This document shows positions 7,236 to 40,534 of a stretch of DNA of 41,347 bases, in pieces (positions within the stretch are counted from its first letter, which is position 1; each line of letters begins with the position of its first letter). A program made the position numbers and the translations under genes. The stretch comes from Jimgerdemannia flammicorona (taxonomy: Eukaryota): contig RBNJ01000108.1 in the NCBI GenBank assembly GCA_003990765.1, forward strand, positions 1 to 41,347, in the 5' to 3' direction. The notes below the pieces were generated by a model, which worked only from the letters and a program-made list of their open reading frames with translations, was not told the DNA's origin and did not search any database.

Positions 7236-7236
7236 T

Positions 7237-9270
7237 TGTAAGTGCACAACCTCCAAACCACCGAAATTACATGTCACCCTCTGAACAAATCTGGAAATCA
7301 CCTGCTTGATCATGAAGCTAAGTCAAACCAAAGTCACAGCACACAAAGCTGAGTCAATACAAAGTCACAGAACACAAGATTTACACAAACGGAATCTTAC
7401 CAATCAAGACCAAGTGCATATATACTGAGCACCGAGATGTGTTGAATCAGAAGAGCCAAAACAAACAACAACCACAACTTCCAAATACACAAACATGACC
7501 ACCGAGATCTATACCCATATCCGTACTGACATTTGGAATACCATTGTTAACCGAGCCACACCCCCTCTGCCCCTCATGAATATCCATAGCCTAGCACCTC
7601 TCTACTTCGTGGAAGCCCATTGGAATGCTCTGAACATACTTAGCAAGGCCCACTGAATCGGACAAATCTCAAGCTACTATCAGATTGGTCACCTCCTGGA
7701 AGACATGGTCGAACACCACCATGATATAGACATTACCCAGATGTCTCAACACCAGAAGCTCATCGCCCACAAACATCGAGAACTCTTCTATGAGTACAGT
7801 ACCATTATTCCCCACCTCTGAGTTGCCACCAGTGAAATGGTTGCTACTCTGTCCTATGGCCAAATCAATGACATGATACAAGAACTCAACCACAAGTACC
7901 TTGAGTATATTGAAACCACAGACAGAACCTTCCCACACCCCAATGATTATATGCTGCAAATGCCCCAAGTTGGATACATCATAAAGGACATCTACGATAT
8001 AATCCACTTTGATGAAGATGAAGTAGAAGACAATGATCCCTCTGATGCCAATATGACCTCTAGCCAAGGATCTCTACCAACCCTGATCACACCGCCAACC
8101 TTGCCAATGAACTTACAACAATTCATAACAGCATATGAGACTTATTGGGACAATGACCACTGGCACGAATACCAACCCACATTCACCCCCGATTGCTTCA
8201 ACTACAATGAAGAGACTGGAGAACACAACCTGTACCTCCAGACAACCCTCGAGATTGAACCAACCACTCCACCACCCAAGTATGAGCAACATGAACCACA
8301 GCCACCAGCTTACTACAACTCCATGACTCATAGTGCTGTAACCTACAGAAGGTATGCAGACAGTGAATCCAATGAAAGTGAAGATGAAGTACCCCTCCTT
8401 CGCCCACCAACACCTTATCTAGCATATGAGACAGACGACGCCATCTTGTGGGATGGAGACGAAGTTCCAATATATTATTACCTTAGTGAACAAGGAGAAG
8501 TAATCCGTGAACCACTTTTCCTGGATGGCTACTTCATCAGAGATAATGCAATTGATGGTGATGTCATCAAGGACTACCCAGATAGTGCCTAAACCCATAA
8601 ATAACCTAGCAGTCATAGTATAGTTAGATTAGCCTTGTACGACGTGACTGTGAACTAACTCAGCAGTCAGATGATCTCTTGATATGTCAGATCATACTTG
8701 TACTATGTGACTGTATTCCAACTCAGCAAAGCACTTAGTGCTACATCCATATTCAGCATAGTCCAGATAGTCCCTCACTAGTATAAATACCCCTCCCCCA
8801 GACCTCAGAATCTCAGACTCGAACACACAAGAACATTTCTGAATACTTCCCCACAATATCTCTTTACACAACTACTCCTAGTATAGTAATATCATGAATA
8901 GTGAATATATCTATTCAAATAACCCACAAACCACTCTTAAGTAAATCTACTCCCCATTAGGTCCTACTCTTAACCCCATCATGAAATTTCCTAATTGGGT
9001 ATTGTCTGCAGCAATATGCTGATTCAACTAAGCTGGTCTTAGTTTCTTGAACTTCCTGAAATATGGAAATCCTGAACATCCAGAACTAGTCCAAAAAAAA
9101 GGACTTTGGGTGAGATGTCAACCTGATCTTGAAATCAATAAGCATAGAGAATGTACTCCATACAAAATTGATCTTGACCATAAGAAAACAGTCTTCCAGA
9201 ATATCCAGAACTTCCAGAAAACCCTTCCAGAACTACATAATGATTACTCTAAAAAGTGAACCATCTGATA
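7237..9270 (+). repeat. 3' LTR of element A (~2.03 kb)
   Basis: Starts TGTAAG after the PPT; 3' part matches 8-941; ends ccatctgata (terminal CA mutated to TA). Confidence 0.9.
7495..8592 (+). pseudogene. LTR(U3)-encoded accessory ORF3 of A, ~365 codons, unknown function, acidic Pro-rich C-terminus
   Basis: ATG 7495 is in frame with the 251-aa ORF 7837-8592, interrupted by two TGA codons (probably from CGA); the C-terminal part is repeated at 8-261 in the 5' LTR. Confidence 0.8.
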
Positions 9271-10818
9271 CATAGTGGTTGCTGAGTCCTTTAAATATGC
9301 CAGATTCTCTTCAAGATGTATCTCTTAGACTAACTCAAGTCTGTTATAAGTAAGTTCTTATTGGAGTGCCTTCCCAAGGTCTTATAGTCCTCAAACTTCT
9401 TATCTTTAACTGTCTTATTATCTCTTAGATTGCTTGCAAGGAAGTGTGTTTAAGTGAAACCGGAACTGACTTTATTTCAGAGGAAATAAGAGGGGTATTT
9501 ATACAAAATACAATTCAATAGTTGCTAAGATATAAAGCTAAATATAAATTCCAATAACTAAAACTACTAAGTTCCAGAGTTGGTGCTGATGGTTGTATAG
9601 GTTCAGGATATTGGCATTATTTAGTGTCACATCAAAATGCCAGTACTGGAACAATTTCACATCACCTCAGAATACTGGTACTGGCATTATCCAGTATTAT
9701 ATAAGAATACCGGTACTGGCATTATCCAGTGTAATACAGAACTTAGAGCAGAAAGTTCAGGACTATGGGAGCTTCATCCTCATCATCATCATCACTGAAG
9801 GAGATGAGATCCACAAATTCATCATTTTCGTGTGCTTCATTATGTGTCTCGCGTATGTCGATGTAGTGTGGGATGACGTCATTGCCGATGACGTCATCAC
9901 ATTCAGCTGTGGTGGGAAAATTGGGAACAAGATCTGGAGCTCTCCAGTCTATAAGGTTCTCTTCCACAAAATAGGGAACAAATGTGGGGTCTTGGGGAGG
10001 TCTAATCTAGATACTTGGGCCTTGGAATACTGAGATCAATCCTTGCAGGAATTGGTCTGAGTTGTCCTGAAGGATAGGGTGCCAGAAGTCTTCTACTTCT
10101 TCACTGTTGAGGGTGATAGTGGACTGGGCTTCTGTAACCACTCTGGCTTCTAGTGCATTGATATGGTGGGGTGATAGGTCTCTGAAGTCTGAGACTCTAA
10201 CATACTCCAAGTTGGGGATTGACCATAGTGCATGCCTGAAGATCTGATGGATCTTCTTAGCTGTCCTTATTTCATGTATATCCATGGGAGTGGCATCTTG
10301 TAGCTCTTGGGTACTGGCTTGTGGGAACTCCCAGCAGAGGAGGTTTCCTATTTCGTACTCCTGCCACATTTGGAGGCATTCAGTAGCAATAGTGATCCTT
10401 ATTTCCATTTCACAGTGGTAGAGAATAAAGTGATAAGGGTCTGCAGTACCCAGGTTGATACTAGGCATCCTTCTTGAGTGGATCCTCATGGCTCTTCTGA
10501 TGTCTTGGAATATCCTTTCCTTAACTGAGATACCTTGGTGATTCCTTGATCTTGAGGTTTGGCAGGCAGCAGGCATTTTGTTTATGGTAAGTCTTTAAGC
10601 TATTTTGGGATTAGTGGTTCTTGTTGGTTGCTGCTACTGTGGTTCCTTGATCCTTCTTTTATATTCTTCAGGATGCTTGTGCTGTGGTCACAATGACTCA
10701 CAGTTGGTCATCATTACTCATCTCATATGCTGTATGATCTTCTTGTGCTCCAATCTAGTGGCTTGTAAGGAAAGGCTGTCTCTGGTGCTGATGTCATCAT
10801 TCTGGGGTCACTATTATA
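9271..10818 (-). repeat. 3' LTR of element B (terminal 5 bp displaced by element A)
   Basis: Highly similar to 16472-17989 and 19118-20636; PPT adjacent at 10819. Confidence 0.92.
9743..10576 (-). pseudogene. LTR(U3)-encoded accessory ORF3 of B, ~277 codons
   Basis: ORFs 10007-10576 and 9743-9967 are one frame broken by a single TAG that is CAG in sister copies; also present in the other three B LTRs. Confidence 0.85.
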
Positions 10819-11131
10819 TCTTCCTCCTGAATAAGGATCTTCCTGAGCATCCTTATTCATTGGTCCAGTCTTGAAAAATTTGCTGATCCCATAACCTCTG
10901 GTAAGGGGTTAAAAACTGGTGTTTATGGGCTGGTGTCTTCTCTTTATATTTTGGCATGATGGTGAAGGGTTGCTCTCTTCATATAGAGCAAGGGCCTGAT
11001 TCTGATCTTGACCAATCAGTTGATGGTTCAAACTCCTCTGACTTCGAAAGTCTCATAGATGAGTAGTTGCCAGTGCTATATCCCTTAGAGAATGGTCCAG
11101 ACAGATAGCCTGCTGGTCATGGGACATGCTG

Positions 11132-14100
11132 TTATGATTCATGGACTAGAACCTCATGGGTGATCATCATGTTTTGCTTCTCTTGTATAGGTTCATGGTA
11201 CTTCTTGAGTCTGTTCCTATATACTATGGTAGACAGTATGGTCCCTGAGATTTTTCTAAGCCAGAAGATAGTTCCCTTGATATCTTGCACATAGAAGGGT
11301 TCTTTTCATTTGGGCTCCAGTTTTTGCGACCATGAGGCTTCTACCATATTTTGATACAGTAGAACCTTTTCTCCGATTTGGATGAGTTCTAGGGCCTTGT
11401 GATTCTTTTCCGCATTCTTCCTTGTCAGCACTTGTGACTTGGTGATGTAATCTTCAGCCTTCTTCCTGATTTGGTGTAGTCTCCAGATTTCTGCATCAAC
11501 CCATCTTCAAGTTAGGTCTAGATTTGTGGCTGAGGTTCCATCAGAATCTTCTTCTCTGAAGAGCAGCTCTCTTGGGGTAAAATGTGTGCTCTGTGACCAT
11601 ATGTCTTGTAGAACAGAGAGGGCAGTTGGGAGATAGTTATCCCAATTCTCATATGTCTCTGAGATCTTTGCTAGGATGTTCTTGAGGGTCTTGTTGGTTC
11701 TCTCTGTCTGTCCATTTCCTTGAGGGTGGTACACAGTGGTCTTGATGTACTGGATCTTGTATTTCTGATACATTATCTCATGGAATCCATTGACAAATTC
11801 TGTGCCATAGTCTGTTGTAATTTGCTTTGGTGTCTTGTAGTGGCAGATGATTTCTTGGTGTAGGAAGTCGGCTATAGAGAGAGTATTGGCTTCTTGTAAT
11901 GCTCCTGCCTCTATCTATTTGGTGAAGAGGTCTACAATAACTATAATATACAGTTTCCTGATAGTATTACTAGTAGTGGTCCAATGATATCCATTGCAAT
12001 GTGGTGGAAGGAGATAGGCTCAATTATTGATAATCCGGATGCTTGGTCTTGCTGATCTTGTTTCTGTTTTTGGCACTTGTTACACCCTTTGACAAATTGG
12101 CACAGGTCTTCTTCCATCTTGAGCCACCACATGGTTCTTCTTGCCTTGTCGTATGTGTTGGTTCCTTCTAAGTGTCCTTGCTTGTATACTTCCTTCATTA
12201 CTTGATACTTCTTGTGTTCAGGTATTACTAGCTTTCCTCCTTTTCTGAGTGTAGTGTTGTCTAATTCAAACTGTTTCCAAGTCCAGTTGATGATGGTAAT
12301 TGTCCAGGGTTCGAGGTGGTTGGGCATCTTCTGCTGCTCAAGGTAGCTGATTAATCCATAGTATAGCTCCTTATTCATATTGAGTAGTCTTGATGGGGGT
12401 GTTTCGAGGTATCCTTGAGAGTGCATTAGTATTGGTGTTGGTCTTTCCTGAGTGGTGCTTGACAGTACAGTCATACTCTTGCAGCCTGTAGATCCATCTG
12501 GCATATATTCCTTTGGGGTTCAGAGTGTGGAATAGCCAGGCAAGAGTGGAATTGTCTGTTTGAATGGTGAAGTGTTTTCCAGCTAGGTAGTAGTGGAACT
12601 TGTCTACTGCCCAAACTACCACTAAGCATTCAAGCTTGCATGACTTGTAGTTCTGTTCCACTCCATGGGTACCTCAGCTTGCATAGGAGATGACATATTC
12701 ATATCCATCTTTCTTCTGAGCTAGGACTGCTCCAAGTTCTATAGTACTCACATCTGTCTGCAGGATGAATTCTAGGTTCCAGTCTGGTCTTCTGAGGATG
12801 GGTGCTTGGGTCAACCTGGTCTTGAGTTCATTGAAGGTTTCTTGGTACTCCTTGGTCCATTCAAATTTGGTCTCCTTCTTCAGTAGCTCATAGATAGGTG
12901 CTGCAATGTTGGAGTATCCTTTGATGAATCTTCTGTAGTAGCTGGACAGTCCAAGGAAGGTGTGGACTTTGTAGTTGTTCTGGATCTCGGGTAGGCTGCA
13001 ACAGCCTCAATCTTCATGGAGTCTGTGTGGATTCCAGTCTGGTTGATGAGGTGTCCTAGGTAGGCGATTTCTTGAGCTGCAAACTTGCATTTCTTGGGCT
13101 TGATGTAGAGGCCATACTCCTTGAGCCTCTTGAGGGCTAGCTGTATGTGATTGACATGTTCCATACAGTGTTGCTGAAGATGATTACATCATCAACATAG
13201 ACAAAGAGCCATTTTTCAATCTTGTTACTGAAGACTCTGTTCATCATTTGCTGGAAACTTACTGGGGCATTGCATATTCCAAATGGCATTCACAGATAGA
13301 TATAGGTGGCATCAGGTGTAATGAAGGCTGATTTCTCACTGGTATCTTGAGTGAGACTGATCTGATGGAAGCCTGAGAACAGATCCAAGGTGGTGTAGTA
13401 TTTGGCTTTGCTTCCAAGGGTGGTAAGAATTTCTTGAATATTCGGCAAGGGCTGCCTATCCTTCTTGGTGATGGCATTGAGTTTTCTATAGTCAATGCAG
13501 AGTCTTGGTGCAAACTCTCCAGACTTGCTTCCTTTCTTTGGGGCAAGGACAATGGGCTGATAGCTTGCTTGTTGATTCCAGCTTCTTCCATTTCCTTGAG
13601 TTCGGCTTGCAGCCACTCTCTGTAGACAGGTGGTATGGGTCTGGCTTTCTGGTAGATAGGCTTGGTATCACTAGTGTCAGCTTCATGGTAGTACTTGGGT
13701 TCTTGATTGTAGATATCCCTAAAGTCTGTAGCAAGTACCTCTTCATTCTTGTACAGGATCTTGAGAAGTTATTCTTCCAGGAGAAAGTTTTCTCCAATGG
13801 TATATGTGTGCTTGTTCTGGTCCTTATCTTTCTTATGCTCAAGTTCAGTAATCTTGATGGCTGCATAGGCTCCTCTTCCAGTAGATCCAAAGCCTTGTTC
13901 TCCTCTCTTGGTCTTGATAAGTTCAGTGGCTTCTATGATCTTGAGCTTCTTGATTTCATGGATCAGCATCTGGCCAATCCTGTCATACTTCTTGACTTCG
14001 AAGAGGGTGGTGTGGTTGTGATTTCTGACTATGAGAAAAATCTTGCCAGTGTAATCAGGGTCAATTACTCCTCCTTCAACTGAGATTTTGCTTTTGGCCA

Positions 14101-15000
14101 GACTGCTCCTGGTCTTGATAATTCCAGTATGGTTTTCTGGCAACTTGACTCCAATTCCAGTGCCAAGTAGGGTGGTGGTCTGTGGTTCAAGGGTAGCATC
14201 TTGGATGCTGGCAAGGTCCATTCCTATGGCTCCTTCAGTCTTGTATTCTGGGATCTTGGCTTCAGGGTGAAACTTCTTGACCTTGGGGGTGATGTCTGAT
14301 TCTTGTTCCTTCTCATTATCACTGTTAGCTTGAAGCTCTGGGGGCTAGTCATCTTCTTCAGCTTTCCTTTTTGCTTCAGCAGCTTCTTGCTCATGTTTCT
14401 GTTGGCAGATTTTCCTGACTTCACTGATACAGGACCAGTAGTCATTCAGGTGTTCGAAGCAGTACATTCTAGTACCATGGGGGCATCTTCCTTGAGGGGC
14501 ATACTCATCAATGATCTTATTATACCACTGCTCATCTGTGAGCTTGGGTGTCTTATTTTTGTTCTTGTTCACTGAGTGCATGAAGACCTCTGTGTCTTCT
14601 TCATCTCTTTCCTCCATGTCTAGCAGGACTCCTTTGTGGACATTGATAGAAACTCATATCTTTCTTCCTCTATAGTTGATCTGTATCTTCTGGGCATTGA
14701 GGTCAATAATGGCCTTGGCCTTGTGAAGCCATTGGTTGCCAATGAGGATGTCATAGTTAGTGGCACTTATAACAATCACATCTACTAGGATGGTAGCTCC
14801 TTCTATCTTGATGGGTACTTCTTGGATTTTGCCAAGAAGGGTAGCTCATATATCATCTGCTGTGATATATACCATCTTGGTGGACTCTTCAATGTCCCAA
14901 CCTAGGCAGTCAATTGCCTTCTTGCTCATGAGGCATCCTCCAGCACCAGTATCAATGATGGCATCAAAGATACAGTCTTCAATCTGGCAGGGGGTATAGG
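11132..15000 (-). pseudogene. pol: pol of element B: PR, Cys/His module, dUTPase, RT, RNase H, integrase
   Basis: DAIIDTGAGGCL; RLCIDYRKLN; TTLDLFSGFHQI; YVDD near 13190; LECLVVVWAVDKFHYYL; IAMDIIGPL; YHPQGNGQTERTNKTLK. Confidence 0.93.
13870..14290 (-). pseudogene. dut: dUTPase domain between protease and RT of B
   Basis: GMDLAS..TRSSLAKSKISVEGGVIDPDYTGKI..DRIGQML..RGEQGFGSTG. Confidence 0.93.
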
Positions 15001-16466
15001 CTAATATCTTGTACTGGTCTTCAGATTCTTTACCTGAGTTCTCAGATTCTTCTTGTGCATTGTGAGCTTCTATGATCTTATACTCTTGATTCTTAGCAGT
15101 AGTTGCAAGTCCTACTCTCAACTGCTGTCTGAAGGCAGGGACTTCAGCTAGCTGCCCAAAAGTGGCATTGACCTTCTGTTTCTTGAAGTCCTTGTAGATG
15201 TCATACTGGTGGATCTTGGTCTTGCACAGCTTCTGTTCCTTCTTGCTCTTGCTTTCTCCTGAGACTAGAGTAGTGCCTTTGATAATTTGGCAGGCAGCTT
15301 CATCTAACTCCATATCTTGATCAATCTCCTCAGATTGGGTCTTACTTTGAATAGTAATAGCTGGAGTCTTCTTTGGTCTTCCAACTGGCTTGCTGTTGCT
15401 CTTCTTGTCATAGGGCTTGGACTGGGTTCTGGTACCTTCAGTAGTAGGGTAGAATTCGAGCTCCTCATAGTATTCTTCATCATCAGTGTCACTGATCTCC
15501 TCGATGACTACTGTATTGGTTTGTTCTCTGGTTCTGCTAGCATTGCTTGATTGGGCTTTACATCTCATTTTGGTCATGCAACTCTTTGCATAGTAGCCTT
15601 CTTCTCTACATCTGAAGCATGTGATATTGTATTCTTCTGTAGTAGCTACAAATCTCTACACTGGTCTCCTGTTGGCACTTTGGGCTTCTCTAACAACATC
15701 ACCAAGGTGTGCAGTCATCTTGGTGAACTGCTTGGCAAGTTCTTCCACTGGGTTAGCTTTGGCTATCTTGGGAGTAGGTGGGATTAGTTGTCTGTTTACA
15801 ACTGTGGCAGGTAAGATACTAGTTGACTTTGATGGCTCTATCTTGATGCTAGTTATTTTCTCCATTGAGTGTTTGGCAGAGTGTCTGGCAGTCCAATATC
15901 TCTGTGCAAAGACCACTTTCTGATCAAGGGTCAGTGCAGCTGGGGTAGACTGGATTGCTAGGGCAATTTCAGAGTGAACTCCTTTGAGGAAGATTGAATT
16001 CCAAGACAATCTGGTGGCAGATTTGGATATAGAATGAGTTGGGATCTTCACTAAGTCCCTGACAGATAGTATTGAGTTGATCCTTAAGAGCTTGCTTGAT
16101 CTCTTCAGTATAATATGTTGTTCTGAGGAAGGTCTTTATGTTGGTAAGTTTGACTGCATCAGCACCAGTAATAATGGCTGCATTAAACTTATCTCTGGCA
16201 GGCTCTCTGAGGCTAACTGATAGAAGGGCCAATTGAGCATCCACACCAAGGGCTCATATGGTGGTGAATTGTTCAAAGTCTTCAATAAAGATCAGGATTG
16301 ACTCTTCAGTAGTATATCCATAGAATGTGGGGGAATGCATTTCTATCTTATCTTGAATTCTTGCAGAGATGACTTTTGTAGTCAGGGTAGTTATTGTGGG
16401 GGTTGTTCATTTTTCAGCTTGAAAGTGAGGGATTCATCTTGAATCACCAGCCAATGGGCACCAAGT
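15001..16466 (-). pseudogene. gag: gag of element B
   Basis: Homologous to gag of C (KQALKDQLNTICQGLSEDPNSFY, KGVHSEIALAI, NPVEELAKQFTKMTAHLGD); degenerate zinc knuckle near 15590-15625. Confidence 0.85.
16451..16463 (-). promoter_or_regulatory. Primer binding site of B (TGGTGCCCATTGG)
   Basis: Begins with TGG 3 nt after the LTR end; the same motif follows the 5' LTR of C; cognate tRNA not identified. Confidence 0.75.
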
Positions 16467-17989
16467 TGTCACATAGTAGTCGCTGAGTCCTTCAAATATG
16501 CCAGATTCTCTTCAAGATATATCTCTTAGACTAACTCAAGTTTGTTATAAGCAAGTTCTTATTGGAGTGCCTTCTCAAGGTCTTATAGTCCTCAAACTTC
16601 TTATCTTTAACTGTTTTGTTATCTCTTAGATTGCTTGCAAGGAAGTGTATATAAGTGAAACCAGAACTTGACTGACTTTATTTCAGAGGAAATAAGAGGG
16701 GTATTTATACAAAATACAATTCAATGATTACTAAGATATAAAGCTAAATATAAATTCCAATAACTAAAACTACTAAGTTCCAGAGTTGGTACTGATGGTT
16801 GTACAGGTTCAGGATACTGGCATTATTTAGTGTTACATCAAAATGCCAGTGCTGGAACAATTTCATATCACCTTAGAATACTGGTGCTGGCATTATCCAG
16901 TATAATATAGAACTTAGAGCAGAAAGTTCAGGACCATAGAAGCTTCATCCTCATCATTATCATCACTGAAGGAGATGAGATCCACAAATTTGTCATTTTT
17001 GTATGCTTCATTATATGTCTCGCATATGTCGATATTATGCAGGATGACGTCATCACCAATGACATCATCACATTCGGCTGTGGCAGGAAAATTGGGAACA
17101 AGATCTGGAGCTCTCCAGTCTATGAGGTTCTCTTCCACAAAATAGGGAACAAATGTGGGGTCTTGGGGAGGTCTAACCTGGATGCTTGGGCCTTGGAATA
17201 CTGAGATTAATCCTTGCCGGAATTGGTCTGAGTTGTCCTGAAGGATAAGGTGCCAGAAGTCTTCTACTTCTTCACTGTTGAGGGTGATAGTAGACCAGGC
17301 TTCTGTAGCTACCCTGGCTTCTAGTGCATTGATATGGCAGGATGATAGGTCTCTAAAGTCTGAGACTCTAACATACTCCAAGTTGGGGATTGACTATGGT
17401 GCATGCCTGAAGATCTGATGGATCTTCTTAGCTATCCTTGTTTCACATATATCTATGGGAGTGGCATCTTGTAACTCTTGGGTGCTGGCTTGTGGGAACT
17501 CCCGGCAGAGGAGGTTTCCTATTTCATACTCCTGCTATATTTGAAGGCATTTGGTAGCAATAGTGATCCTTGTTTCCATTTCATGGTGGTAGAGAATAAA
17601 GTGATAAGGGTCTGTAGTACCCAGGTTGACTCTAGGAGTCCTTCTTGAGTGGGTCCTCATGGCTCTTCTGATGTCTTGGAACATTCTTTCCTCAACCGAG
17701 ATACCTTGGTGATTCCTTGACCTTGAGGTTTGGCAGGCAGCAGACATTTCATTTATGGTAAGTCTTTGAGCTATTTTGGGATTGATGGTTCTTGTTGATT
17801 GCTGCTACTGTGGTTCCTTGATCCTTCTTTTATATTCTTCAAGATACTTGTGCTATAGTCACAATGACTCATAGTTGGTCATCATTGCTCATCTCATATG
17901 CTGTATGATCTTCTTATGCTCCGATCTGGTGGCTTGCAAGAAAAGGCTGTCTCTGGTACTGATGTCATCATTCTGAGATCACTGTTACA
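16467..17989 (-). repeat. 5' LTR of element B (~1.52 kb) containing an ORF3 copy at 16914-17747
   Basis: TGT...ACA termini; matches the other B LTRs. Confidence 0.93.
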
Positions 17990-19112: not shown

Positions 19113-20636
19113 TGTCATGTAGTGGTTGCTGAGTCCTTCAAATATATCAGATTCTCTTCAAGGTGTATCTCTTAGACTAACTCAAGTTTGTTATAAGCAA
19201 GTTCTTATTAGAGTACCTTCTCAAGGTCTTATAGTCCTCAAACTTCTTATCTTTAAACTATCTTGTTATTTCTTAGATTGCTTGCAAGGAAGTGTGTGTA
19301 TTATACTAAGAAGAACTGACTTTATTTCAGAAGAAATAAGAGGGGTATTTATACAAAATATAATTCAATGGTTGTTAAGATATAAAGCTAAATATAAATT
19401 CCAATAACTAAAACTACTAAGTTCCAGAGTCGGTACTGATGGTTGTATAGGTTCAGGATGCTGGCATTATTTAGTATTACATCAAAATACCAGTGCTGGC
19501 ATTATCCAGTATTATATAAGAATACTGGTGCTGACATTATCCAGTATAACAAAGAACTTAGAGCAGAAAGTTCAGAACTATGGGGGCTTCATCATTATCA
19601 TCATCACTGAAGGAGATGAGATCTACAAATTCATCATGCAGATCACGTGTTTTATGTACTTCATGTGCTTTGGGTATGTCATGTGGGATGATGTCATCAC
19701 CGATAATATCATCACATTCGGCTATGGTGGGGAAATCAGGAACAAGGAGATCTGGAGCTCTCCAGTCTATGAGGTTCTCTTCCACAAAATAGGGAACAAA
19801 TGTGGAGTCTTGGGGAGATCTAATCTGGATGCTTGGGCCTTGGAATACTGAGATCAATTCTTGCAGGAATTGATCTGAGTTGTCCTGGAGGATAGGATGC
19901 CAGAAGTCTTCTACTTCTTTGCTATTGAGAGTGATGGTGGACTGGGTTTCTGTAGCCACCCTGGCTTCTAGTGCATTGATACAGTGGGATGATAGGTCTC
20001 TGAAGTCTGAGACTCTAACATACTCCAAGTTGGGGATCAACTATAGTGCATGCCTGAAGATCTGATGGATCTTCTTAGCTGTCCTCATTTCACGTATATC
20101 TATAGAAGTGGCATCTTATAGCTCTTGGGTGCTGGCCTGTGGGAATTCCTGGCAGAGGAGGTTTCCTATTTCGTACTCCTGCCACATTTGGAGGTATTCA
20201 GTAGCAATAGTGATTCTTGTTTCCATTTTGCGACAGTAGAGAATGAAGTGATAAGGGTCTGCAGTACCCAGGTTAACACTAGGAGTCCTTCTTGAGCAGG
20301 TCTCCATGGCTCTTCTAATGTCTTGGAATATTCTTTCCTTGACTGAGATACCTTGGTGATTTCTTGATCTTGAGGTTTGGTGGGCAGCAGGCATTTTGTT
20401 TATGATAAGTCTTTGAGCTATTTTGGGATTGGTAGTTCTTATTGGTTGCTGCTACTGCAGTTCCTTGATCCTTCTTTTATATTCTTCAGAATGCTTGTAC
20501 TGTAGTCACAATGACTCACAGTTGGTCATCATTGCTCATCTCATATGCTGTATGATCTTCTTGTGCTCTGATCTGGTGGCTTGTAAGGAAAGACTGTCTT
20601 CTATGCTGATGTCATTATTCTGGGGTCACCATTACA
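19113..20636 (-). repeat. Solo LTR of family B with ORF3 copy (19558-20394), flanked by ATAT
   Basis: TGT...ACA termini, no internal domain, ATAT on both sides, copia relic continues across it. Confidence 0.92.
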
Positions 20637-21017: not shown

Positions 21018-22093
21018 TATAATAGTGACCTCAGAATAATGACATTATCACAGAAGACAGTCTTTTCTTAAAAGCCACCAAATTGAAGTATAAGAAGATC
21101 ATATGGTATGACTCACCTAGGCTACAAGATGAGCAATGATGACTAACTATAAGTCATTGTAATCACAAGACAGATATCTCAAGAAATATAAAAGAAGGAT
21201 CAAGAAATCACAGTAGTAGTAACCCAAACAAGGCTTACAGAAATAGTTCAAAAGACTTATTACAAATAAATGCCTGCCACTTGCCAAATCTCAAGGTCTA
21301 GGAACTACCAAGAATCCTCAGTTTAGTAAAGGATATTCCAAGACATTAGAAGAGCCATAAGAACCCACATAAGAAGGACTCCTAGCCTCAACCTGGGTAC
21401 TAGTAACCCTTATCATTATATCCTCTACTGCTATAAAATAGAAATAAGGATCACTATTGCTACTGAATATCTCTGAATATAGTAGGAATATGAAATAGAA
21501 AACCTCCTCTATCAGGAATTCCCTCAGACTAGTCTCCTATAGATATATGTATATATGAAATAAGGACAGCTAAGAAGATTCATCAGATCTTTAGGTATAT
21601 ACTATAGTCAATCTTCAACTTAGAGTATACTAGAATCTCAGACTTCAAGAAACTATCAGCCCATCATATCAATATACTAGAGGCCATAGTGGCTACAGAA
21701 GCTCAGTTTACTATTACTCTCAATCATGATAAAGTAGAAGAGTTCTGGAATCCCATCCTCTAGAACAATCCAGATCAATTCCTATAAGGATTGATCTCAG
21801 CATTCCAAGGCTCCAGTATCCAGGTTAGACCTCTCCAAGACTCCACATTTGTTCCTTATTTTGTAAAAGAGAATGTCATAGATTGGAGAGCCCCTGCTGC
21901 TACCAAATGAGTTGACATCACCTGCAATGACATTATCAGTAATGATATTATCCTGCTAATTGATGATATATAAGAAGCATGTGAAATATATGATATATGT
22001 GAAATAAACAAAATGTTCACTGATCTCATCTCTTTCAAAGACATCCTGTCTCCAACCTCTAGCCTTGATGATAGTAATGAAGATAAAGCCCCC
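21018..22093 (+). repeat. Older, more mutated B-family LTR in opposite orientation, cut by the LINE; ORF3 relic from ATG 21270
   Basis: Reverse-complement similarity to 19580-20636 (tataatagtgacc = tgtaatggtgacc; MPATCQISRSRNYQ); similarity stops at ~22093. Confidence 0.88.
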
Positions 22094-22176
22094 GCATCTC
22101 TTTCCAGTACCATTCAGGTTACATAACCTTTGGAAGGCACTTTTGACATCATTTTCAGCAAAAAGAGACTAACAAC

Positions 22177-24201: not shown

Positions 24202-24234
24202 AGGCAGATTGACAACATCACATATATCATCAAT

Positions 24235-29939: not shown

Positions 29940-30205
29940 AAAAGTATGGTAGGGTACACCTTCTCAGGAAGGCCAGCCCATGCAATCCCGTGATTAATAC
30001 CGATGATGGAAAGGGCACAAGTATTATGATTGCTTTTATCTAGATGCAGAGTCACTACATCACCGCTCCGAAGTGCGACGCCATGGCCATGAGATCCTCT
30101 CGGCCAAAATACTTTCCGATAATCGATACAATACCCCGCCGATGGTTTGCCGTTTATCTCAGCCACAACGGCACATGTTTGCGAAAACCTGATCAAGGCT
30201 GTCAA
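29940..30205 (-). pseudogene. SPRY/B30.2-like domain fragment
   Basis: HGVALRSGDVVTLHLDKSNHNTCALSIIGINHGIAWAGLPEKVYPTI resembles the SPRY C-terminus (GDvigvxLD...lsFxxNG..G.Af..l...lYP). Confidence 0.6.
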
Positions 30206-30369
30206 GCTTCCATCGTTTACATAAGACCATCGCGTACCAAAACGTGCTCGCCCCGATGCACAGGACCGTTGGCGGATGAAGTATCAAACTTATGTCAACC
30301 AAATACAAAACCTGTCCGCTCTCTCGCTTGTTGATTTATTCTACTTTTTATTCCCATCCTCTCTCCGCA

Positions 30370-30388
30370 ATATATATATATATATATA
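30370..30388. repeat. (TA)n microsatellite
   Basis: atatatatatatatatata. Confidence 0.9.
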
Positions 30389-31554: not shown

Positions 31555-31641
31555 GGGGTGACCAGGTGTGTCCACTGGGCACAGGTGTGTCTGAGGGGCA
31601 CAGGTGTGTCCAATGGGCACAGGTGTATCCTTAGGACACAG
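31555..31641. repeat. Tandem ~19-20 nt repeat gggcacaggtgtgtc (four copies plus a partial one)
   Basis: Directly visible; lies in a CpG-free patch. Confidence 0.85.
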
Positions 31642-33129: not shown

Positions 33130-34323
33130 CTAGACATCGTTATTGTCCTGCGGACATACGCTTGTACGATGTGGTTTGACCCTATCACCATTCTTGCGCA
33201 TTGACTTTAGAAACTGCGAATTCACAAAATACTCGTTCAATAAGTCTTCCAAAGCTTGAAGACGTTCTGCCAACACGTCAACAAAGAATTTTGCTTCTGT
33301 TGTCCCACGATGTTGCCAATTTGTTTTATCCGCTAACGGCATCCCAGTTGTGGTCAAAAATGAATCTTTAAAAATGAAACAAAAGAAGACATTGATATTG
33401 ATAAAATGATCTTTATAGGAGATACAACACGGGGAGAAACGAAATTGCCTCGAGGAAATTACCAACTTCATACCTTCAAGTTTTTTTGGTCGATTCTCTA
33501 CAACATCCACGTGCCAACATTTGAACGACCCCCCAACTTGATGCAGCTCGGACACCGAAAAGGAAAGCATACAAGCTCGCCACTATGCTGACGAAACCGC
33601 CGATGGGCGGTACTGTAGATAAAACCGTGTGTACTCTATGATCAAGGTAATGAGGAGAAAAGCGAAATAATAAATAGAATCATTAATGAACAGATTCATC
33701 GCGACTGTCAGCTAATTGCGCCCACATTACCAACCTTATTTCAGTTTGAACTGTCACGGTGAGCATATCAACTAACAAAAAAAGAATTGGCATCATCACA
33801 GTCGCCGACGAAGCTTTTTGACTCTTCCAACTCGATTCCTAGACATCAACCGAGGAAATTTTGTTCGTCTGGGGGAACCCAAGATAGTTCCGGAAGGTCA
33901 TTCATGCTTCACGACTGACTAAGTTACGATGGGTGATGAACCTGTGAAATCACGCGGTTGTGAAATGGTTCCAATTTGTACTCGTTTCTTGGGACGCGCT
34001 CGGAAAACCTGTTGCCGGCGATGGCTTCCAGGCCTTAGGGTCTGTGATGGTGAGATTGTTACTTGTAGGTGGCATGCGTATAAGGCGACGAAATGTACTG
34101 TCCATCGAAGAACAGTGCACTGAATGTACTGGTTTTCCATGAATTATTGTAGTTTACTGGAAGAGCCACTACCGGGAAATATTGTTCACATGGATTGGAA
34201 TGGGACGATTGTTCAGTAAGAATTTGGTAAGTGTTCAATAGAATGACCTTCCTCTCCTTTTTTCCTGCCGCCCTCAGGACCTTGGCAGAAACAAAACAAA
34301 TTTCCCCATAAATTCTTACCTGC
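33130..34323 (-). CDS. 3' exons of a spliced host gene or pseudogene of unknown product, interrupted by element C
   Basis: Introns GTATGA..TTTAAAG (33473-33366, 108 nt) and GTAAGA..GGTAG (34319-34169); last exon DSFLTTTGMPLADK...LEDLLNEYF...DNNDV*; middle exons not resolved. Confidence 0.5.
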
Positions 34324-34789
34324 TGTGATGGCTGATCTGAATTAGTAACATGAAACAGGGGAATTAGACATTTGATCGTGGTACCTGAATCCGATTCCCA
34401 ATATAGCTTAGCCTTATAAATAGCAGCCATATTCCGCAAAGTGCAGAAACTTTAATGTTTGCAAAGATTTAGGAGATGTTAGAATCTTCATGATCAGTGA
34501 AATCTTAGCAGATGTTAAAAGATTCAACACTTGCGAAATGAGCCATTACTTAGCCACCTTATAGTTAGCAAAACTTGTATAAATAACCCAGTATCTTAGA
34601 GTGAATAAACCTCAGATCGAAATAGTTCAAAAGTAAAGAGATAGCAAAGGAACTAGTAAGCCCACAGGCAGATACACTTTGAACTCATCCACCCCTGCAT
34701 CCCAAGGACTCTGAGGAGTCAGAGAAGATCAAGTATTCAAGATACAGAAATCTGATGTACTTTCAAGAGTAAGCATCTGCTATATTACA
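34324..34789 (+). repeat. 5' LTR of element C
   Basis: Direct repeat of 40576-41041; TATA-like gtataaata at ~34577. Confidence 0.96.
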
Positions 34790-34801
34790 ACTTAGTGCCC
34801 A

Positions 34802-36240
34802 TTGGCTGATAATTCAAGACGAATCCCTCACTTTCAAGCTGAACAACAAACAACTGCCACTACCCAAGCAACTACACAAACCAAGCCACAATACCCAGAA
34901 AAAATGGATATGAGACTACCAGTATTCCACAGGTATACCTCAGATGAATCAATCATTACCTTCATTGATGATTTCAAGCAGTATGCCACTATAAGGACCC
35001 TGACAGCAGCACAGCAAGTAGCCCTCATGCCCTTCAGCCTATGAGGTCCTGCCAGAGCAGCATTTACAGCTACAACCCATGCAGGAAATAATGCTGATGC
35101 TATACTGACAGCACAGAAGACCTAGCTCTGAAATATATATTATATAGATGAGATCAAGCAAGCCCTGAAGGATTAGCTCAACACAACATACCAAGGAATG
35201 AGTGAGAATCCAAACACATTCTATACTAGAATTCAATATCAGATAATCCTCGCAGATTATGCTACTACTATCCGAGATCAAGTAGCCAAAGCAACCTTCA
35301 TGAAAGGAGTTCACCCAGAGATAGCTATGGCCATCCATTCATTACCAGTAGTCTTGGATCTACCACAGAAGATCACCTATGCTCAGCAATATTGGACAGC
35401 CAGACACCCACAAGACCATATAATGGAAAGAGTCACAGGAGTCAGAATTGAAACACCCAAGGCAACCAGTGTGATCCCTACTATAATGATAAATCAAAAC
35501 ACACCTCAGCCAAAAACTACAGAGCAGCAAAAGAACAGTAACCCTATGGAGGAACTTGCCAAGAGATTTACTGAAATGACCACCCACCTGGGAGACATGG
35601 TAAAAGAAATCCAAGGAAGAAACTGCCACCCAGTTCAGAAGTTTGTTGCCACCTTGGATAAGAAGAAAGGTACCTGCTACACCTGTGGAGAAGAGGGCCA
35701 CTACTCCTATGAATGTATGAGTGAAACCAAGCACAAGGCTCAACCAAGCAATGCTATATGAAACAAAGAGCAGACCAATACAATTATCTTCAAGGAAATT
35801 GGAGATTCTGATAAAGAAGAATGGGAGGCCTATCTTGCTCAGACTGCCAAGAAGGATGTTTGCAAGGAACTCTACAAGAGACCACCAGGAAGACCCAAGA
35901 AGAACCCAGTAGAAAAGTAGATGGAAATGGCCACCAAAAGCCAAGCTGAAGAGATGGACCAAGATATGAAGCTGGAGCAAGTAGTTCAAGATATTATCTA
36001 AGGAACTACCCTAGCCAGCAAAGAAGAAAAAGAAAAGAAACTTCACAAGACTAAGACTTTCAAGTATGATATCTTCAAGGACCTTAGCCAACAAAAGGTC
36101 AATGCAACCTTTGGTTAGCTTGCAGAAATCCCAACATTCAGACAACAAATGAGATTTGGACTTGCCGAAACAACCAAGGAGCAAGGATGAAAGATAACTG
36201 AGGCCAATAATGTTCAAGAGGACTCAGGAGAAGCAAGTGA
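34802..36240 (+). pseudogene. gag: gag of element C
   Basis: MDMRLPVFHRYTSDESIITFIDDF; KATFMKGVHPEIAMAI; zinc knuckle CYTCGEEGHYSYEC. Confidence 0.88.
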
Positions 36241-39200
36241 AGACAATTGCAAAACCTCTGCCTATGCAACATATCAAATTGAAGATAGAGTCTTCAAAGC
36301 CATCATCGATACTGGAGCAGGAGGATGTCTCCTTAGCAAGAAAGCAGCAGACTGCCTAGACTGAGAAGTCAAAGAAGTAACCAAGTTGGTTTTTATCACA
36401 GCAGATAGTACAAGAGCCACCCCTCTGGGAAAGATCCGAGAAGTCCCCATTAAGATTGGAGGAACAACCATCCCAGTAGATGTAATCATAACCAATGCCA
36501 CTAACTATGATATCCTCATCAGCAATCAATGGCTTCACAAAGCCAGGGCAGTAATTGATCTCAATACTCAGAAGATGCAAATCACCTACCGGGGACAGAA
36601 GATATGAATTCCCATCAATGTCAACAAAGGAGCCTTGTCTGACATGGAGGAAGAAGAGAGCAAGCAAGAGAAAGCTTATATAGTGACTACTCTGAAGAAG
36701 AAAGTTAGACAGATGAGTGAAGAAGAATGGTATAAGAAGATCACAGAAGGCTATATACCACAAGGAGTCTGTTCTCATGGGATCAAGATGTACTGTATGG
36801 AGCATGTCAATGATTGCTACCAGTGCACCATCAGAATCAAGAAAATCCACCAGGAAAGAAGACAGAAAGCTCTCGAAAAACAGGTCAGAGAAGAGAAGGA
36901 GGAGGAAAATGATGAACCACTAGCCCTCCTGAAGGATAGTAATGATGAAGAAGAAATTAAGGTCAAGATCCGAAGGACCCACCCTGATGCAGTCTTGCCA
37001 GAATACAAGTCGGAAAATGCAGCTAGAATGGACATTGCCATAGTAGATGAAGCTGTACTAGAACCCCAAACAACCACCCTACTTGCAACTGGACTGAAAA
37101 TGACTATCCCAAAGGAACATGTCAGGATCCTTAAGACAAGAAGCAGCCTGGCCAGAAGTGAAATTATGATTGAAGGAGGAGTCATCGATTCTGACTATAC
37201 TGGAGAAATCCTGCTCATTGCTAGGAATCACAATCCTACAATCTCATTCTCAGTCAAGAAGAGGGACCGATTGGCACAGATGTTGATCTTCCCAATCCTA
37301 CAACCAAGGATTATAGAAGTCAAGAATTTGGAGGAAATGAAAAGAGGAAAAAAAGGATTCAGATCCACAGGAAGAGGAGTATTTGCCAGTACCAAGATCA
37401 CTGAACTGGAGCATAAGAAGGAGGAAATCACAAACAAGCACAGTTATATCATTGGAAATGAATTTCTACTCAAAGAGGAACTCAAGAAAATACTCCATGA
37501 ATTTGAAGATATCCTCACCATGGATTTCAAGGATATCAAGGAAAAGACTCCACACTACTATCATGAGGTAGATACCGGAGATACTGAACCAATTTACCAG
37601 AAGGCAAGACCTGTCCCACCAGCCTACTGAGAATGGCTCAGAGAAGAAATCAAGTGGATGGAAGAAGCTGGTATTATCAAAGAAGCCAGCAGCCCCTAGT
37701 CTTCACCAGTTGTACTAGCTCCCAAAAAAGGAAGCAAACCTGGAGAATTCACCCCAAGACTCTGTGTCAACTACAGAAAGCTCAATGTAGTTACCAAGAA
37801 GGATCACCAATCACTGCCCCTCATCAGTGACATCCTTATAACACTGGGAGACAAAGCACAGTACTACAGTACCTTAGACTTATACTCAGGATTCCACCAA
37901 ATTGGACTCACAGAGATGGCAAGTGAAAAGTCAGCCTTCATCACCCCAGATAGAACCTACATATACCTACGAATGCCGTTTGGGATGTGCAATGCACCAG
38001 CAAGCTTTCAGTGAATAATGAATAAAATCTTCCACTATGATATGGAAAGATGGATAATGGTCTATGTTGATGATATAATCATCTACAGCAAGACACCTGA
38101 GGAACACCTGCAGTACATATGGTAGATAATAGAAAGACTGAGAAAGCATGGCCTATATATCAAGCCCAAGAAATGCAAATTTGCAGAAATTGAGATCTCC
38201 TACCTTGGCCATATTATCAATCAAGATAGAATATAAATGGACCCCCTCAAGATACAAACAGTAGCAGCATACCCAAGGCCCACCACCATTACAGAAGCCC
38301 AAGCCTTCATGGGACTCGCCTCCTACTATCGCAGATTTATCAGAGGATTCTTCAATATTACAGGTCCAATCTATGAACTCAACAAGAAGGACACTAAATT
38401 CAACTGGACTGGCAGACAACAAAAAGCATTTGATGAACTCAAGGTCAGACTGACTCAGGCACCCATTCTGAGACAACCCAATTGGACTCAAGAGTTTATC
38501 CTTCAGACAGACACAAGTGCACAAGAACTAGGAGTAGTTCTAGCTCAAAAGGAAGACAAAAAAGAGTATGTCATTACATACCTTAGCCATAGAACCTGAG
38601 GAGGTGAAAAAGAATACAAATCCTACAAGTTGGAATGTCTTGCAGTCATTTGGGCTGTGGAAAAGTTCCACTACTATCTGGCTGGAAGACACTTCACCAT
38701 TCAGATGGACTACTCAGCTCTCACCTAGCTACTGACAACTGGACAACTCAAAGGAATCTACACCAGATGGATAATGAAGTTACAAGTCTATGATGTAACC
38801 ATTGTACACTTCCCTGGAAGAACAAATTCCAATGCAGATGCTCTCTCACAGATACCTTAAAACACCTCCAACCAACAAATCAATTATAAATAAGGAGCTC
38901 TACTATGGAATCATCACATATCTGAGACAGCAAAAGATGCCCCAATATCTGGAAGAATGGATGCAAACAATTATCAACAGAACATAGAAACAATTCAAAA
39001 CTGATGGACAAATACTGAAGAAAGGAAAACTACTGGTCATATCAGAATATAAGAAGGAGCAAGCAATGAAATCAGTACATGAACTTGGCCATCTAGGAGG
39101 AATGAATATATGTATATGATAAGACAAGAAGAATGATATAGTGGCTAGGAATGGAGAAAGATATCAGACAATTTGTCAAAACCTGCGATAAATGCCAGAA

Positions 39201-40092
39201 ACAGAAACAAGACTAACAAAACCAAGCCCCAGGATCAGCACATATAGAACCAGTACCATTTTCCCATATAGCAATAGATGTAATTGGGCCTCTACCCTTG
39301 ACCCTGACTGGCAACTGATATATCATTATCATTGTAGACCTTTTTATGAAGTAGATAGAAGCAGGACCTCTCAAGGAAGCCAATGCACAGTCAATTTCTG
39401 ATTTCTTCCACAAAGAAATCATCTGCTGGTTCAAGACCCCAATGCAAGTAACTACAGATAGAGGAACAGAATTTGTGAACCAGTTCTTTGAGATTCTCTA
39501 TAAGAAGTACAAGATCCAGTACATTCAGACTACAGCCTATTACTCTTAAGGAAATGGATAAGCAGAAAGGACCAACAAGACCCTCAAGAATGTTATTGCC
39601 AAGATCTGTGATAACTATAAAAACTAGGATCACTATCTGCCAATAGCATTATCTGCTCTCTGAGATATCAGATCACAAAGTACCCACTTTACCCCTTGAG
39701 AAATACTGTTTGGAGAAGAAAGTTCTCAAGAAACCCTATCACCCAATGGAGATACTGTATGGAAACATATGGATAGAGAAATATGGAGACTATACCAAAT
39801 CAGGAAGAAGGTTGAGGATTACATAATGAAGACACAGGTACTACAATGGAAGAATGCAGAAAAAACCCACAAATCCTTAGAGATTATCAAGATAGGAGAT
39901 AAAGTCCTGGTGTATCAGAACATAGTAAAAGCCTCATGGTCATGAAAACTGGAGCCCAAGTGGGAAGGACCTTACCTTGTGCAAGATATAAAAGGAACCA
40001 CCTTTTGGCTACGAAAACTCTCAGGCACAATCATCCCCACTACCATCTATTGAAACTAACTCAAGAAGTACCATGACCAGTCAATGAAGTAA
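36241..40092 (+). pseudogene. pol: pol of element C: PR, Cys/His module, dUTPase, RT, RNase H, integrase
   Basis: AIIDTGAGGCL; RLCVNYRKLN; MPFGMCNAPASFQ; VYVDDIII; FMGLASYYRRFI; LQTDTSAQELG; AIDVIGPLP; LEPKWEGPY. Confidence 0.94.
36955..37380 (+). pseudogene. dut: dUTPase domain between protease and RT of C
   Basis: AARMDIA..TRSSLARSEIMIEGGVIDSDYTGEI..DRLAQML..RGKKGFRSTG. Confidence 0.93.
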
Positions 40093-40534
40093 TACTGCCA
40101 CCCTCAGAATTACTAGTACAGCTCAGCAAGCCATTGAAAGATAGTGGTGTTCGACTGAGCCACCAACAATGGAAGAATCCTTTGACAGCATCCAGAGTAT
40201 AGTGCAAACACACTTATCACAAATCTCACATTTCAAGGCCTACCAGAACCAAACCGAGTTCCAGGAATACTTCAAGTTGAGACAGCTACTGAATTCAAGA
40301 CTGAAGATGGGAAAAGAAGACTAGATCAGAGAATGTCAGCTCTCCTATACTCAGATCACAATTGCAAAAAGAGTGCACAAGTTATTCAAAGACAATGAGT
40401 CAGTCTTAGCCCATTTCCAAGGAGTAACCCCAGGAGACTTTGGATATGTCAAGAGACAACATTGGAAGGACATAATGATATAAATCATACAGTATAAGGA
40501 AATACAAATTGTAGAAGCCTGGGAATTCGAGTGA
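40073..40534 (+). pseudogene. Accessory ORF3 of C at the env position (~153 codons, 4 internal stops; not in the ORF track)
   Basis: Manual translation MTSQ*SNTATLRITSTAQQAIER*WCSTEPPTMEESFDSIQSIVQTHLSQISHFKAYQNQTEFQEYFKLRQLL...QITIAKRVHKLFKDNESVLAHFQGVTPGDFGYVKRQHWKDIM; motifs align with the LTR ORFs of A and B. Confidence 0.72.

Follow-up and report, generated by a model that had tools for sequence, protein, structure and literature searches.

Most of the extra genes known in the long terminal repeat (LTR) retrotransposons come from plants and animals, and an assigned function is rare among them. Among the retroviruses, the accessory genes that lie in the U3 region of the LTR, or overlap it, include sag of the mouse mammary tumor virus (MMTV), the product of which (Sag) is a type II membrane glycoprotein that acts as a superantigen, and nef of the human immunodeficiency virus (HIV), which encodes a myristoylated adaptor. 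The present study describes ORF3, a family of open reading frames (ORFs) carried by three Ty3/gypsy elements (A, B, and C) in a stretch of 41,347 nucleotides (nt) of Jimgerdemannia flammicorona (contig RBNJ01000108.1 of the assembly GCA_003990765.1, positions 1–41,347 of the forward strand), which is referred to throughout as the window.

In some families of the plant LTR retrotransposons, additional ORFs (aORFs) are described as lying between pol and the 3' LTR, with an unknown function, and both a nuclear localisation and a regulatory role have been suggested for them (PMC7264820). The LTR retrotransposons of the bdelloid rotifers carry varied ORF3s after pol, and the presence of the same type in unrelated lineages has been read as modular sharing; several of these ORF3-bearing lineages also carry a dUTPase (PMC5408684). 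In the fungi, an "add. ORF" is drawn in Figure 3 of an account of the gypsy elements (PMC2864245), and an extra gene, brtn, is mentioned in the Boty/BcGypsy1 element of Botrytis (10.1101/2021.04.13.439636). The tas gene of the foamy viruses is a 3' accessory gene with an internal promoter, which is located within the gene before it, and its product, Tas, binds and activates both this promoter and the LTR (PMC8670036, PMC4929722).

The three LTR elements of the window were delimited by self-comparison and a repeat search. Element A (8..9266, forward strand) is a Ty3/gypsy chromovirus with the domain order gag–dUTPase–PR–RT–RH–INT–chromo, in which pol ends at 7024 and the repeated parts of the LTRs (8–937 and 8338–9266) are 93% identical. 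Element B (9270..17987, reverse strand) is a Ty3/gypsy element without a chromodomain, with the order gag–PR–dUTPase–RT–RH–INT and LTRs of 1.55 kb (9270–10816 and 16471–17987) that are 90% identical. Element C (34324..41041, forward strand) is a relative of B, with the same domain order and LTRs of 466 bp (34324–34789 and 40576–41041) that are 94% identical. The interiors of B and C share 67% of their nucleotides across 5.4 kb, and their gag-pol proteins are 56% identical over 1486 aligned residues, while the identity of A to either of them is 36–37%, in the conserved segments only. The presence of a chromodomain in A, and its absence from B and C, also bears out the earlier assignment of A alone to the chromoviruses.

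One ORF family in three Ty3/gypsy elements

The original prediction, which was drawn from the letters of the window, was that a single uncharacterised gene family is carried by three different Ty3/gypsy elements, and it quoted ordered motifs from ORF3-A (7495..8592, forward strand), ORF3-B (9743..10576, reverse strand), and ORF3-C (40073..40534, forward strand). All three frames, and the motifs, are present at these positions, and the profile, decoy, and library comparisons agree on one family. ORF3-A has 365 codons with two in-frame stops, and consists of a core (approximately 7495–7880) followed by an acidic tail. The ORF3-B copy of the 3' LTR has 277 codons and one in-frame stop, and ORF3-C has 153 codons with four stops, and is formed by the core only, with no long tail.

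The pairwise BLASTP matches are marginal, with expect values (E) of 0.007 for A–B, 0.016 for B–C, and 0.017 for A–C. When the hidden Markov models (HMMs) of the families were compared with the 1013 stop-to-stop ORFs of the window, the top non-self matches were the other two ORF3s. The profile–profile alignment (hhalign) of B and C covers 94 columns (P = 1.4e-4), with a score of 31.8 that was reached in none of 70 column shuffles, for which the mean was 12.5 ± 2.5. The scores of the other two pairs were likewise reached in none (A–C, 18.7) or only one (A–B, 21.7) of the 70 shuffles, which sets all three alignments apart from their shuffled controls. The HMMs built from two families and applied to the third gave 13.3, 15.2, and 10.1 bits, values that were reached, in each case, by 0/2000 shuffled decoys. 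The addition of divergent proteins raised these values to 46–50 bits, a gain that is partly circular, as the proteins had been fetched by the three-family profile.

A word-based protein search recovered close relatives of B (5 of 241 candidates), A (1 of 626, in the tail only), and C (8 of 12). A profile of A, B, and C (alignment A1) was then compared with 1,835,955,588 representative proteins, of which 17, all of them unnamed environmental ORFs, matched at E ≤ 1e-3. These matches include P0018, an A-type core without interruptions, as well as three distant B-like proteins and eight divergent proteins (P0021–P0028) in which the whole core is matched. The E-values reach 1e-107, and those of the divergent members range from 1.4e-8 to 5.4e-4 in this library of 1.84 billion proteins. 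In a pairwise search of a database of approximately 1000 sequences, the divergent members bridge the families, with E-values of 5e-4 between A and P0023, 6e-7 between B and P0021, and 1e-13 between C and P0025, while the unrelated ORFs of the window gave values of 0.1 or worse. The ten clusters that were looked up derive from JGI/IMG, ENA, or a read archive, and are labeled at most as a "hypothetical protein"; none of the ten has an NCBI or UniRef record. No relatives were found in viral contigs in two scans. A tblastn search with the B-like sub-alignment recovered two short metagenome contigs, L001 and L002, both of which (2/2) have uninterrupted B-type ORFs, of 291 and 323 codons. These profile, decoy, and library comparisons showed that the three copies of the window and about 30 environmental ORFs are homologous.

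The shared core begins with an N-terminal helix, [YF]xxIxxxIxxA, followed by a long helix that ends in [YF][YF]xIGxxL, and a third part, QxRxA[RK]RI[YH]xxFxxxPxA[LI]xHL, which is followed in turn by LS or LT. A shared helical core of about 150 amino acids, with acidic tails added in A and B, had been proposed. The helical core (approximately 125 residues) is present, as are the acidic tails, which follow it in most cases, but the tails of A and B are not detectably homologous: an HMM of ten B-type tails scored the A tail and P0006 much as it scored shuffled sequences (reached by 1157/2000 and 1961/2000 decoys, respectively). The likeness of the A and B tails is compositional, and only the core is shared.

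Position, selection, and descent

ORF3 follows pol in all three elements and precedes the TATA box of the LTR itself, so that it forms part of the 3' end of the genomic RNA. ORF3-C occupies the env position, as predicted, on the sense strand between the pol stop and the start of the LTR at 40576. It begins 17 nt before the pol stop codon (40090–40092), overlapping the last 20 nt of pol, and ends 28 nt 5' of the polypurine tract (PPT) of C (TTCAGGAGGAAGA, 40563..40575, forward strand). ORF3-B is entirely within U3, where it starts 240 nt past the beginning of the LTR and ends 240 nt before the LTR TATA box. This arrangement is found in both of the full B LTRs and in a solo LTR, with copies at 16914..17747 in the 5' LTR (reverse strand, two in-frame stops) and at 19558..20394 in the solo LTR (reverse strand). 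A partial and more diverged copy (21270..21894, forward strand), with a possible piece of the tail extending to 22123, is located in an inverted B-like LTR.

The PPT of B (10819..10831, reverse strand) has the same sequence as that of C, TTCAGGAGGAAGA, and the two tracts are homologous together with their flanks, including the first bases of the LTR (B 10882–10805 versus C 40505–40590, E = 9e-7). ORF3-B and ORF3-C are thus found on opposite sides of a homologous PPT, following it in B and preceding it in C. The idea that the 310 nt separating pol from the PPT in B hold the remains of a C-type ORF3 was rejected, as no family HMM matched this spacer in any frame (best E 0.25–1); the spacer can be aligned with C only over the last 30 nt or so before the PPT.

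The position of ORF3-A is ambiguous. Only its last 255 nt are located within the demonstrable LTR, that is, the portion repeated in the window from 8338 onward. Between pol and 8338 there is a single polypurine-like tract, AAGAAGGGGAGAG (7222..7234, forward strand), which is followed by T and then TGTAAG, and there is no purine-rich tract just before 8338. This tract is a candidate for the true PPT of A, in which case the LTR would begin at 7237 and would contain the whole of ORF3-A, with 258 nt between the start of the LTR and that of the gene, an arrangement close to the one in B. There are thus two possibilities: the LTR boundary falls within ORF3-A, or the 5' LTR of A is truncated and the LTR starts at 7237. 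The proposed location of ORF3 inside the LTR in both A and B is thus correct for B, where the whole gene is in U3, and can be demonstrated in A for the final 255 nt.

The B-type ORF3 is under purifying selection, with a ratio of nonsynonymous to synonymous substitutions (dN/dS) of about 0.2, rather than the value of 1 that would be expected of sequences free of constraint. The comparison of the 3' LTR copy of ORF3-B with L002, over 275 codons, gave a dN of 0.355 and a dS of 1.865, with a ratio of 0.19 by NG86 or 0.23 by maximum likelihood (ML), and the comparison with L001 also gave 0.19, with saturated dS. When the same aligned bases were read in a shifted frame, the ratios were 1.06 and 1.40. 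The copies in the two LTRs of element B, whose divergence postdates its insertion, gave a ratio of 0.41 (NG86) or 0.72 (ML). Taken together, these values indicate a frame under constraint between lineages that is relaxed in the dead element.

The copies of the window have nine in-frame stops, two in A, one in the 3' LTR and two in the 5' LTR of B, and four in C. All nine are of the transition type (TGA, TAG, or TAA), and the corresponding codons are sense codons in the intact relatives. The observed/expected ratio of CpG is 0.09–0.21 in A, B, and C, in comparison with 1.00 in the segment at 29700–34323, and these values fit the CpG-directed decay of transposable elements (TEs) that had been supposed for this host.

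The ORF3 cores are 21–25% identical in all three pairs (aligned columns), and the B–C identity, of about 21%, is no closer than that of either to A. An ML tree built from 17 cores divides into two halves that separate B from C and put A with B, although its deep forks have only 80–82% bootstrap support and long branches. It is unlikely that ORF3-B and ORF3-C are simple orthologues, because the ORF3s are equally distant while the gag-pol sequences are close, the two genes are on opposite sides of the PPT, and the tree separates them. The original suggestion that the gene is either ancient or exchanged between lineages can be narrowed accordingly to a leaning toward exchange or non-orthology, given that B and C share 56% of their gag-pol residues and a PPT that has ORF3 on opposite sides. 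Most simply, the ORF3 cassettes may have been swapped between gypsy lineages when co-packaged RNAs underwent template switching at their 3' end, and in B, and perhaps in A, the cassette would have moved together with its LTR.

Candidate promoter, protein features, and possible function

The octamer TATAAAAG is a candidate for a dedicated ORF3 promoter. The sense strand of A, B, and C, 24,695 nt in all, contains three copies of it, each located 86–87 nt 5' of an ORF3 ATG. In the 3' LTR of B, the box (10656..10663, reverse strand) is 87 nt upstream of the ATG, as it is in the 5' LTR copy, and in C (39987..39994, forward strand), where it is within pol, it is 86 nt upstream. The solo LTR also has the box, at −87, and so do L001 (−80) and L002 (−65). 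At the observed rate of occurrence, approximately 0.005 matches would be expected in any given interval of 40 nt. In C, the pol codons for D-I-K-G (GAT ATA AAA GGA) make up the box, while the same residues are encoded in B by GAT ATC AAG GGA, with no TATA and no ORF3 at that point. A 5' leader directly in front of the ATG, AGACTTACCA.AAACAAA-ATGCCTGC, is common to the window copy of ORF3-B and L001, the proteins of which are 42% identical, and it is slightly altered in L002 (AGACTCACTACAAACAAATG).

The TATA boxes of the LTRs themselves are all found beyond ORF3. That of A (8782..8789, forward strand, in the context GTATAAATACCCCTC) is located 190 nt past the ORF3-A stop, and has a 15-nt identity with the context of the B TATA box. 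In B (9471..9503, reverse strand), the TATA box (9503–9496) and an AATAAA (9476–9471) are both downstream of ORF3-B, and in C the TATA box is at 40830–40837 (forward strand). The core promoters of the LTRs share GTATAAATA(C/A)CCC, at 8781–8795 in A, 9490–9504 in B, 40827–40841 in C, and 1216–1260 in L002. C and L002 also share GTGAATAAACCTCAG some 20 nt further on, a position that therefore places a poly(A) signal right at the expected start site.

The U3 of B has a run of repeats (9609..9732, reverse strand) after the ORF3-B stop and before the LTR TATA box, with four units spaced at approximately 35 bp (9609, 9644, 9679, and 9714), three of which have a TACTGGCATTAT-type head; the inverted arms are AATGCCAGTAC and GTACTGGCATT. 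The same interval contains a 43-nt pair in A and a 20-nt inverted repeat in C. The B repeat run, the A pair, and the C inverted repeat are candidate cis sites.

The ORF3 protein matches no described family. The ORF3 frames of A, B, and C have no Pfam match at E ≤ 0.01, and among the 22 aligned members the best Pfam E-value is 0.008, with no family matched by more than two members. The best E-values in PHROG (0.0068) and NCBIfam (0.0077) amount to no family match, and the best value in a profile search of the PDB sequences is 0.29, so that no already described domain was recovered from any of the four collections. The AlphaFold models, which were based on the family alignment, have a confident, all-helical core. 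The mean predicted local distance difference test (pLDDT) value of the member P0008 is 80, and residues 61–150 of P0002 have values of 87–96; its tail, at residues 220–271, falls below 50, which suggests that this part is disordered. The tails are 15–26% Asp + Glu, with a net charge of −22/−23 in the B tail and about −20 in the B-type tails, while A as a whole has −44. The B-type N-termini are arginine-rich, with a net charge of +4 in the first 30 residues of P0002 and P0001. No segment resembling a membrane span was found in 21 members, in which the top 19-residue mean Kyte–Doolittle hydropathy is 1.08, and this maximum, together with the soluble helical core of the models, upholds the view that ORF3 is not a classical Env.

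The models of both P0008 and P0002 have a helix of 6–7 residues, a turn of 4–5 residues, and a helix of 14 residues that contains A[RK][RK]I[YH]xxF. By inspection of the secondary structure, this is the geometry of a helix-turn-helix (HTH), a reading that is offered as a lead. Foldseek recovered nothing from either the PDB (best E 1.2) or the BFVD (best E 0.082). The recurrent best structural rows, for both models, are HTH domains of the ParB/SopB/KorB/VirB type, all of which are below the noise level; the ParB-type rows, also sub-threshold, cover the conserved Y-x-I-G and A-R-R-I-Y-x-x-F helices. The best scores in the ESM Atlas, 0.83 for the whole protein and 0.87 for the core, are both under the bar, and the rows for the core, which are all sub-noise, include DUF6192 (0.87), DUF3102 (0.83), and plasmid-partition clusters (0.81–0.82). 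DUF3102 recurs below the threshold in the leads from both the BFVD and the Atlas. A homodimer model of the core, with two copies of residues 15–160 of P0002, scored 0.00.

ORF3 may be a self-promoted accessory regulator, with a nucleic-acid-binding core and an acidic tail, that moves between gypsy lineages, a reading that is preferred here, tentatively, at somewhat less than an even chance. ORF3 would be transcribed from its own TATA box, TATAAAAG, from a start some 30 nt downstream, to yield a short messenger RNA (mRNA) that ends at the poly(A) site of the LTR, of approximately 1.2 kb in B and 0.9 kb in C. In the B type, each LTR, including the solo LTRs, would be a self-contained ORF3 gene. 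The protein would be nuclear, and its HTH-like core would bind the DNA or RNA of the element, for example at the U3 repeats, while the acidic, disordered tail would recruit host factors, which would raise or otherwise control the transcription of the element. The TATA box, the sub-threshold ParB-type HTH-like core, and the disordered acidic tail indirectly favor the function of a regulator or a VANC-like factor. The contigs that carry the C-type (515–856 bp) and B-type ORFs (778–2375 bp) are close in size to the predicted mRNAs, a likeness that may mean nothing, as short contigs are usual in that protein collection.

A number of points weigh against this reading. Element A lacks TATAAAAG, and has only CATATATAC near −79. 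The argument from the TATA box draws on a single copy of C and on copies of the B type, which are related by descent. The start site and the short mRNA of ORF3 are predictions from the sequence. The isoelectric point of the core varies from 5.1 to 9.3 across the members, and is not markedly basic, and in the hhalign comparison of the family (alignment A2) with a single P1 ParB sequence, the aligned part spans 18 columns, none of them in the HTH, and has a probability of 0.15%. The dS between the B lineages is saturated (1.9 to >3), which makes the ratio of about 0.2 a rough one, and the status of a gypsy accessory gene has been shown only for A, B, and C.

Other explanations have to be considered alongside that of a regulator. 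It is rather doubtful that ORF3 is a replication cofactor that acts in the particle or on the complementary DNA, with a role in the packaging or export of the RNA, nuclear import, the choice of integration site, or the countering of a restriction factor, in the manner of the small accessory proteins of the complex retroviruses. The 3' end of the genomic RNA, where ORF3 is found in A, B, and C, is the usual place of the retroviral accessory genes, and the arginine-rich B-type N-termini, as well as the conservation under selection of a protein that matches no enzymatic family, would also suit such a role. However, the C-type proteins have neither the tail nor the basic N-terminus, and an own TATA box and a solo-LTR copy suit a trans factor independent of the particle, while being compatible with a cofactor. 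The VANC proteins of the plant VANDAL transposons are anti-silencing factors, and ORF3, rather than being a classical activator, may bind the DNA of its own element and block or reverse cytosine methylation or heterochromatin. The heavy mutation or methylation of these elements by the host, evident in the contrast of their CpG ratios (0.09–0.21) with that of 29700–34323 (1.00), and the transition-type nature of 9/9 ORF3 stops are in keeping with this possibility, as are the lineage-specific short repeats in U3 beside ORF3 and the sub-threshold HTH leads, which apply here too. This explanation is nevertheless unlikely: the copies of the window are fully decayed, so any protection failed here, and the acidic tail fits activation at least equally. 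Bolder, and decidedly unlikely, is the proposal of a mobile "LTR gene cassette" (TATA box, ORF, and LTR poly(A) signal) that would move between unrelated Ty3/gypsy lineages by recombination and remain expressed from solo LTRs, and the product of which would represent a new eukaryotic ParB/KorB-like branch that recognises the lineage-specific U3 repeats and shields the entire element family from silencing through CpG methylation, as a counterpart of VANC.

A captured or hitch-hiking gene, which serves the host or acts on other genes with no role in transposition, might also be found inside an LTR with a candidate promoter of its own and the LTR poly(A) signal, and be kept on a solo LTR. This explanation is improbable, however: the same family occupies the same place on the RNA in three different gypsy elements, and the search recovered no named cellular homologue among the 1.84 billion representatives, nor an NCBI or UniRef record for any of the 10 clusters looked up. 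The marginal pairwise E-values (0.007–0.017) and the in-frame stops in every copy of the window might even raise the question of whether ORF3 is a real gene, rather than a set of chance ORFs with a chance likeness of motifs in A-rich retroelement sequence. This is effectively ruled out by the 0/2000 decoys in each leave-one-out test, the library E-values of down to 1e-107 (1.4e-8 to 5.4e-4 in the divergent members), the in-frame dN/dS of 0.19 against 1.06–1.40 out of frame, and the intact relatives of A, B, and C.

The surroundings of ORF3 and its comparison with known systems

The window contains other sequences related to element B. A solo B-type LTR (19120–20634, reverse strand) is 87% identical to it, and an inverted, diverged, and partial B-like LTR (21018–21894, forward strand) is 76% identical. 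The edges of the B LTR are backed by copies with other flanks in two public runs, with breaks at 9273 and 10811/10816, and short pieces that are 80–99% identical to this LTR are present in the contigs of these runs. The segment between the 5' LTR of B and the solo LTR, at 18001–19000, is very AT-rich (GC 0.20).

Elements A and B are arranged tail to tail, on opposite strands; the ends of their 3' LTRs, at 9266 (A) and 9270 (B), are 3 nt apart, and no target-site duplication could be assigned at their junction (9263–9273). Positions 1–7 of the window are AAAAAAA, with no match to 8331–8337, before the 3' LTR repeat of A, and might mark the poly(A) terminus of an inserted sequence by which the 5' LTR of A was truncated.

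The dUTPase domain precedes the protease in A (938–7024), and is located between the protease and RT in B (11132–16470) and C (34790–40092). Chromoviruses and dUTPase-bearing gypsy elements are known from the fungi, where the position of the dUTPase varies among the families, as it does between A and B/C (PMC2864245), and dUTPase-bearing elements are also known from the bdelloid rotifers (PMC5408684).

A non-LTR retrotransposon (LINE), with Exo_endo_phos and RVT_1 domains, occupies 22147–28700 (forward strand), directly after the inverted B-like LTR (21018–21894), into which it may have been inserted. The LINE has a GC content of 0.50–0.57, a strong G skew, and a CpG observed/expected ratio of 0.52, which indicates a milder decay than in the gypsy elements. 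Near its 3' side, there is a GC-rich direct repeat of 90 nt (29278–29367 and 29463–29552), the copies of which are 73% identical and spaced at 185 nt. The segment at 29700–34323 has no Pfam match in any frame, and may be unmethylated host sequence, given its CpG ratio of 1.00 in comparison with the CpG-depleted elements around it.

The accessory ORFs of the retrotransposons are already known as a kind, and it is the ORF3 family itself that is rated here as new, on the basis of word searches. Full-text searches of the literature recovered no description of the family, although these searches are word-based, and a description under another label is possible. The placement in U3 with a candidate TATA box of its own, and the different placement in two close relatives, are also rated as new. 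ORF3 is a testable family: it is defined by its sequence, is under selection, and is unannotated, a profile and natural members with intact frames are available, and it is carried by gypsy elements of both kinds, chromoviruses and non-chromoviruses. A gene within U3 that has a candidate promoter is a rare layout in a retrotransposon, and would make each solo LTR a potential gene. The two close relatives with the gene on opposite sides of the same PPT would exemplify the exchange of a module between lineages. If ORF3 does encode a DNA-binding regulator or an anti-silencer, it would show how the elements deal with the methylation and mutation of their CpGs by the host, and thousands of environmental "hypothetical proteins" would be flagged as retroelement genes.

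The brtn gene is antisense, whereas the ORF3s of the window are on the sense strand. ORF3-B, which is whole within U3, and ORF3-A, which at least overlaps it, resemble MMTV sag and HIV nef in their placement, and the absence of a hydrophobic segment distinguishes ORF3 from the type II membrane glycoprotein Sag; no viral protein matched ORF3 in sequence or fold in the BFVD. The fungal "add. ORF" is likewise an extra ORF of unknown function in Ty3/gypsy elements (PMC2864245), and could affect how new the ORF3 family is.

ORF3-C has the same position as the plant aORFs, on the sense strand, while ORF3-B, compared by position alone, is inside the LTR, and the aORFs, as described, are outside it (PMC7264820). 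Unlike the aORFs covered by that description, the ORF3 family occurs in non-chromoviruses as well as in a chromovirus, and a candidate promoter is dedicated to it. The ORF3s described in the rotifers are env-like, or encode a GDSL esterase or a DEDDy exonuclease, whereas the present ORF3 matches no Pfam family (PMC5408684). In the case of the foamy virus Tas, to which no homology was found in the BFVD, the likeness to the system described is one of layout only: ORF3 is likewise a 3' accessory gene, and in element C the candidate promoter box, TATAAAAG, is located inside pol.

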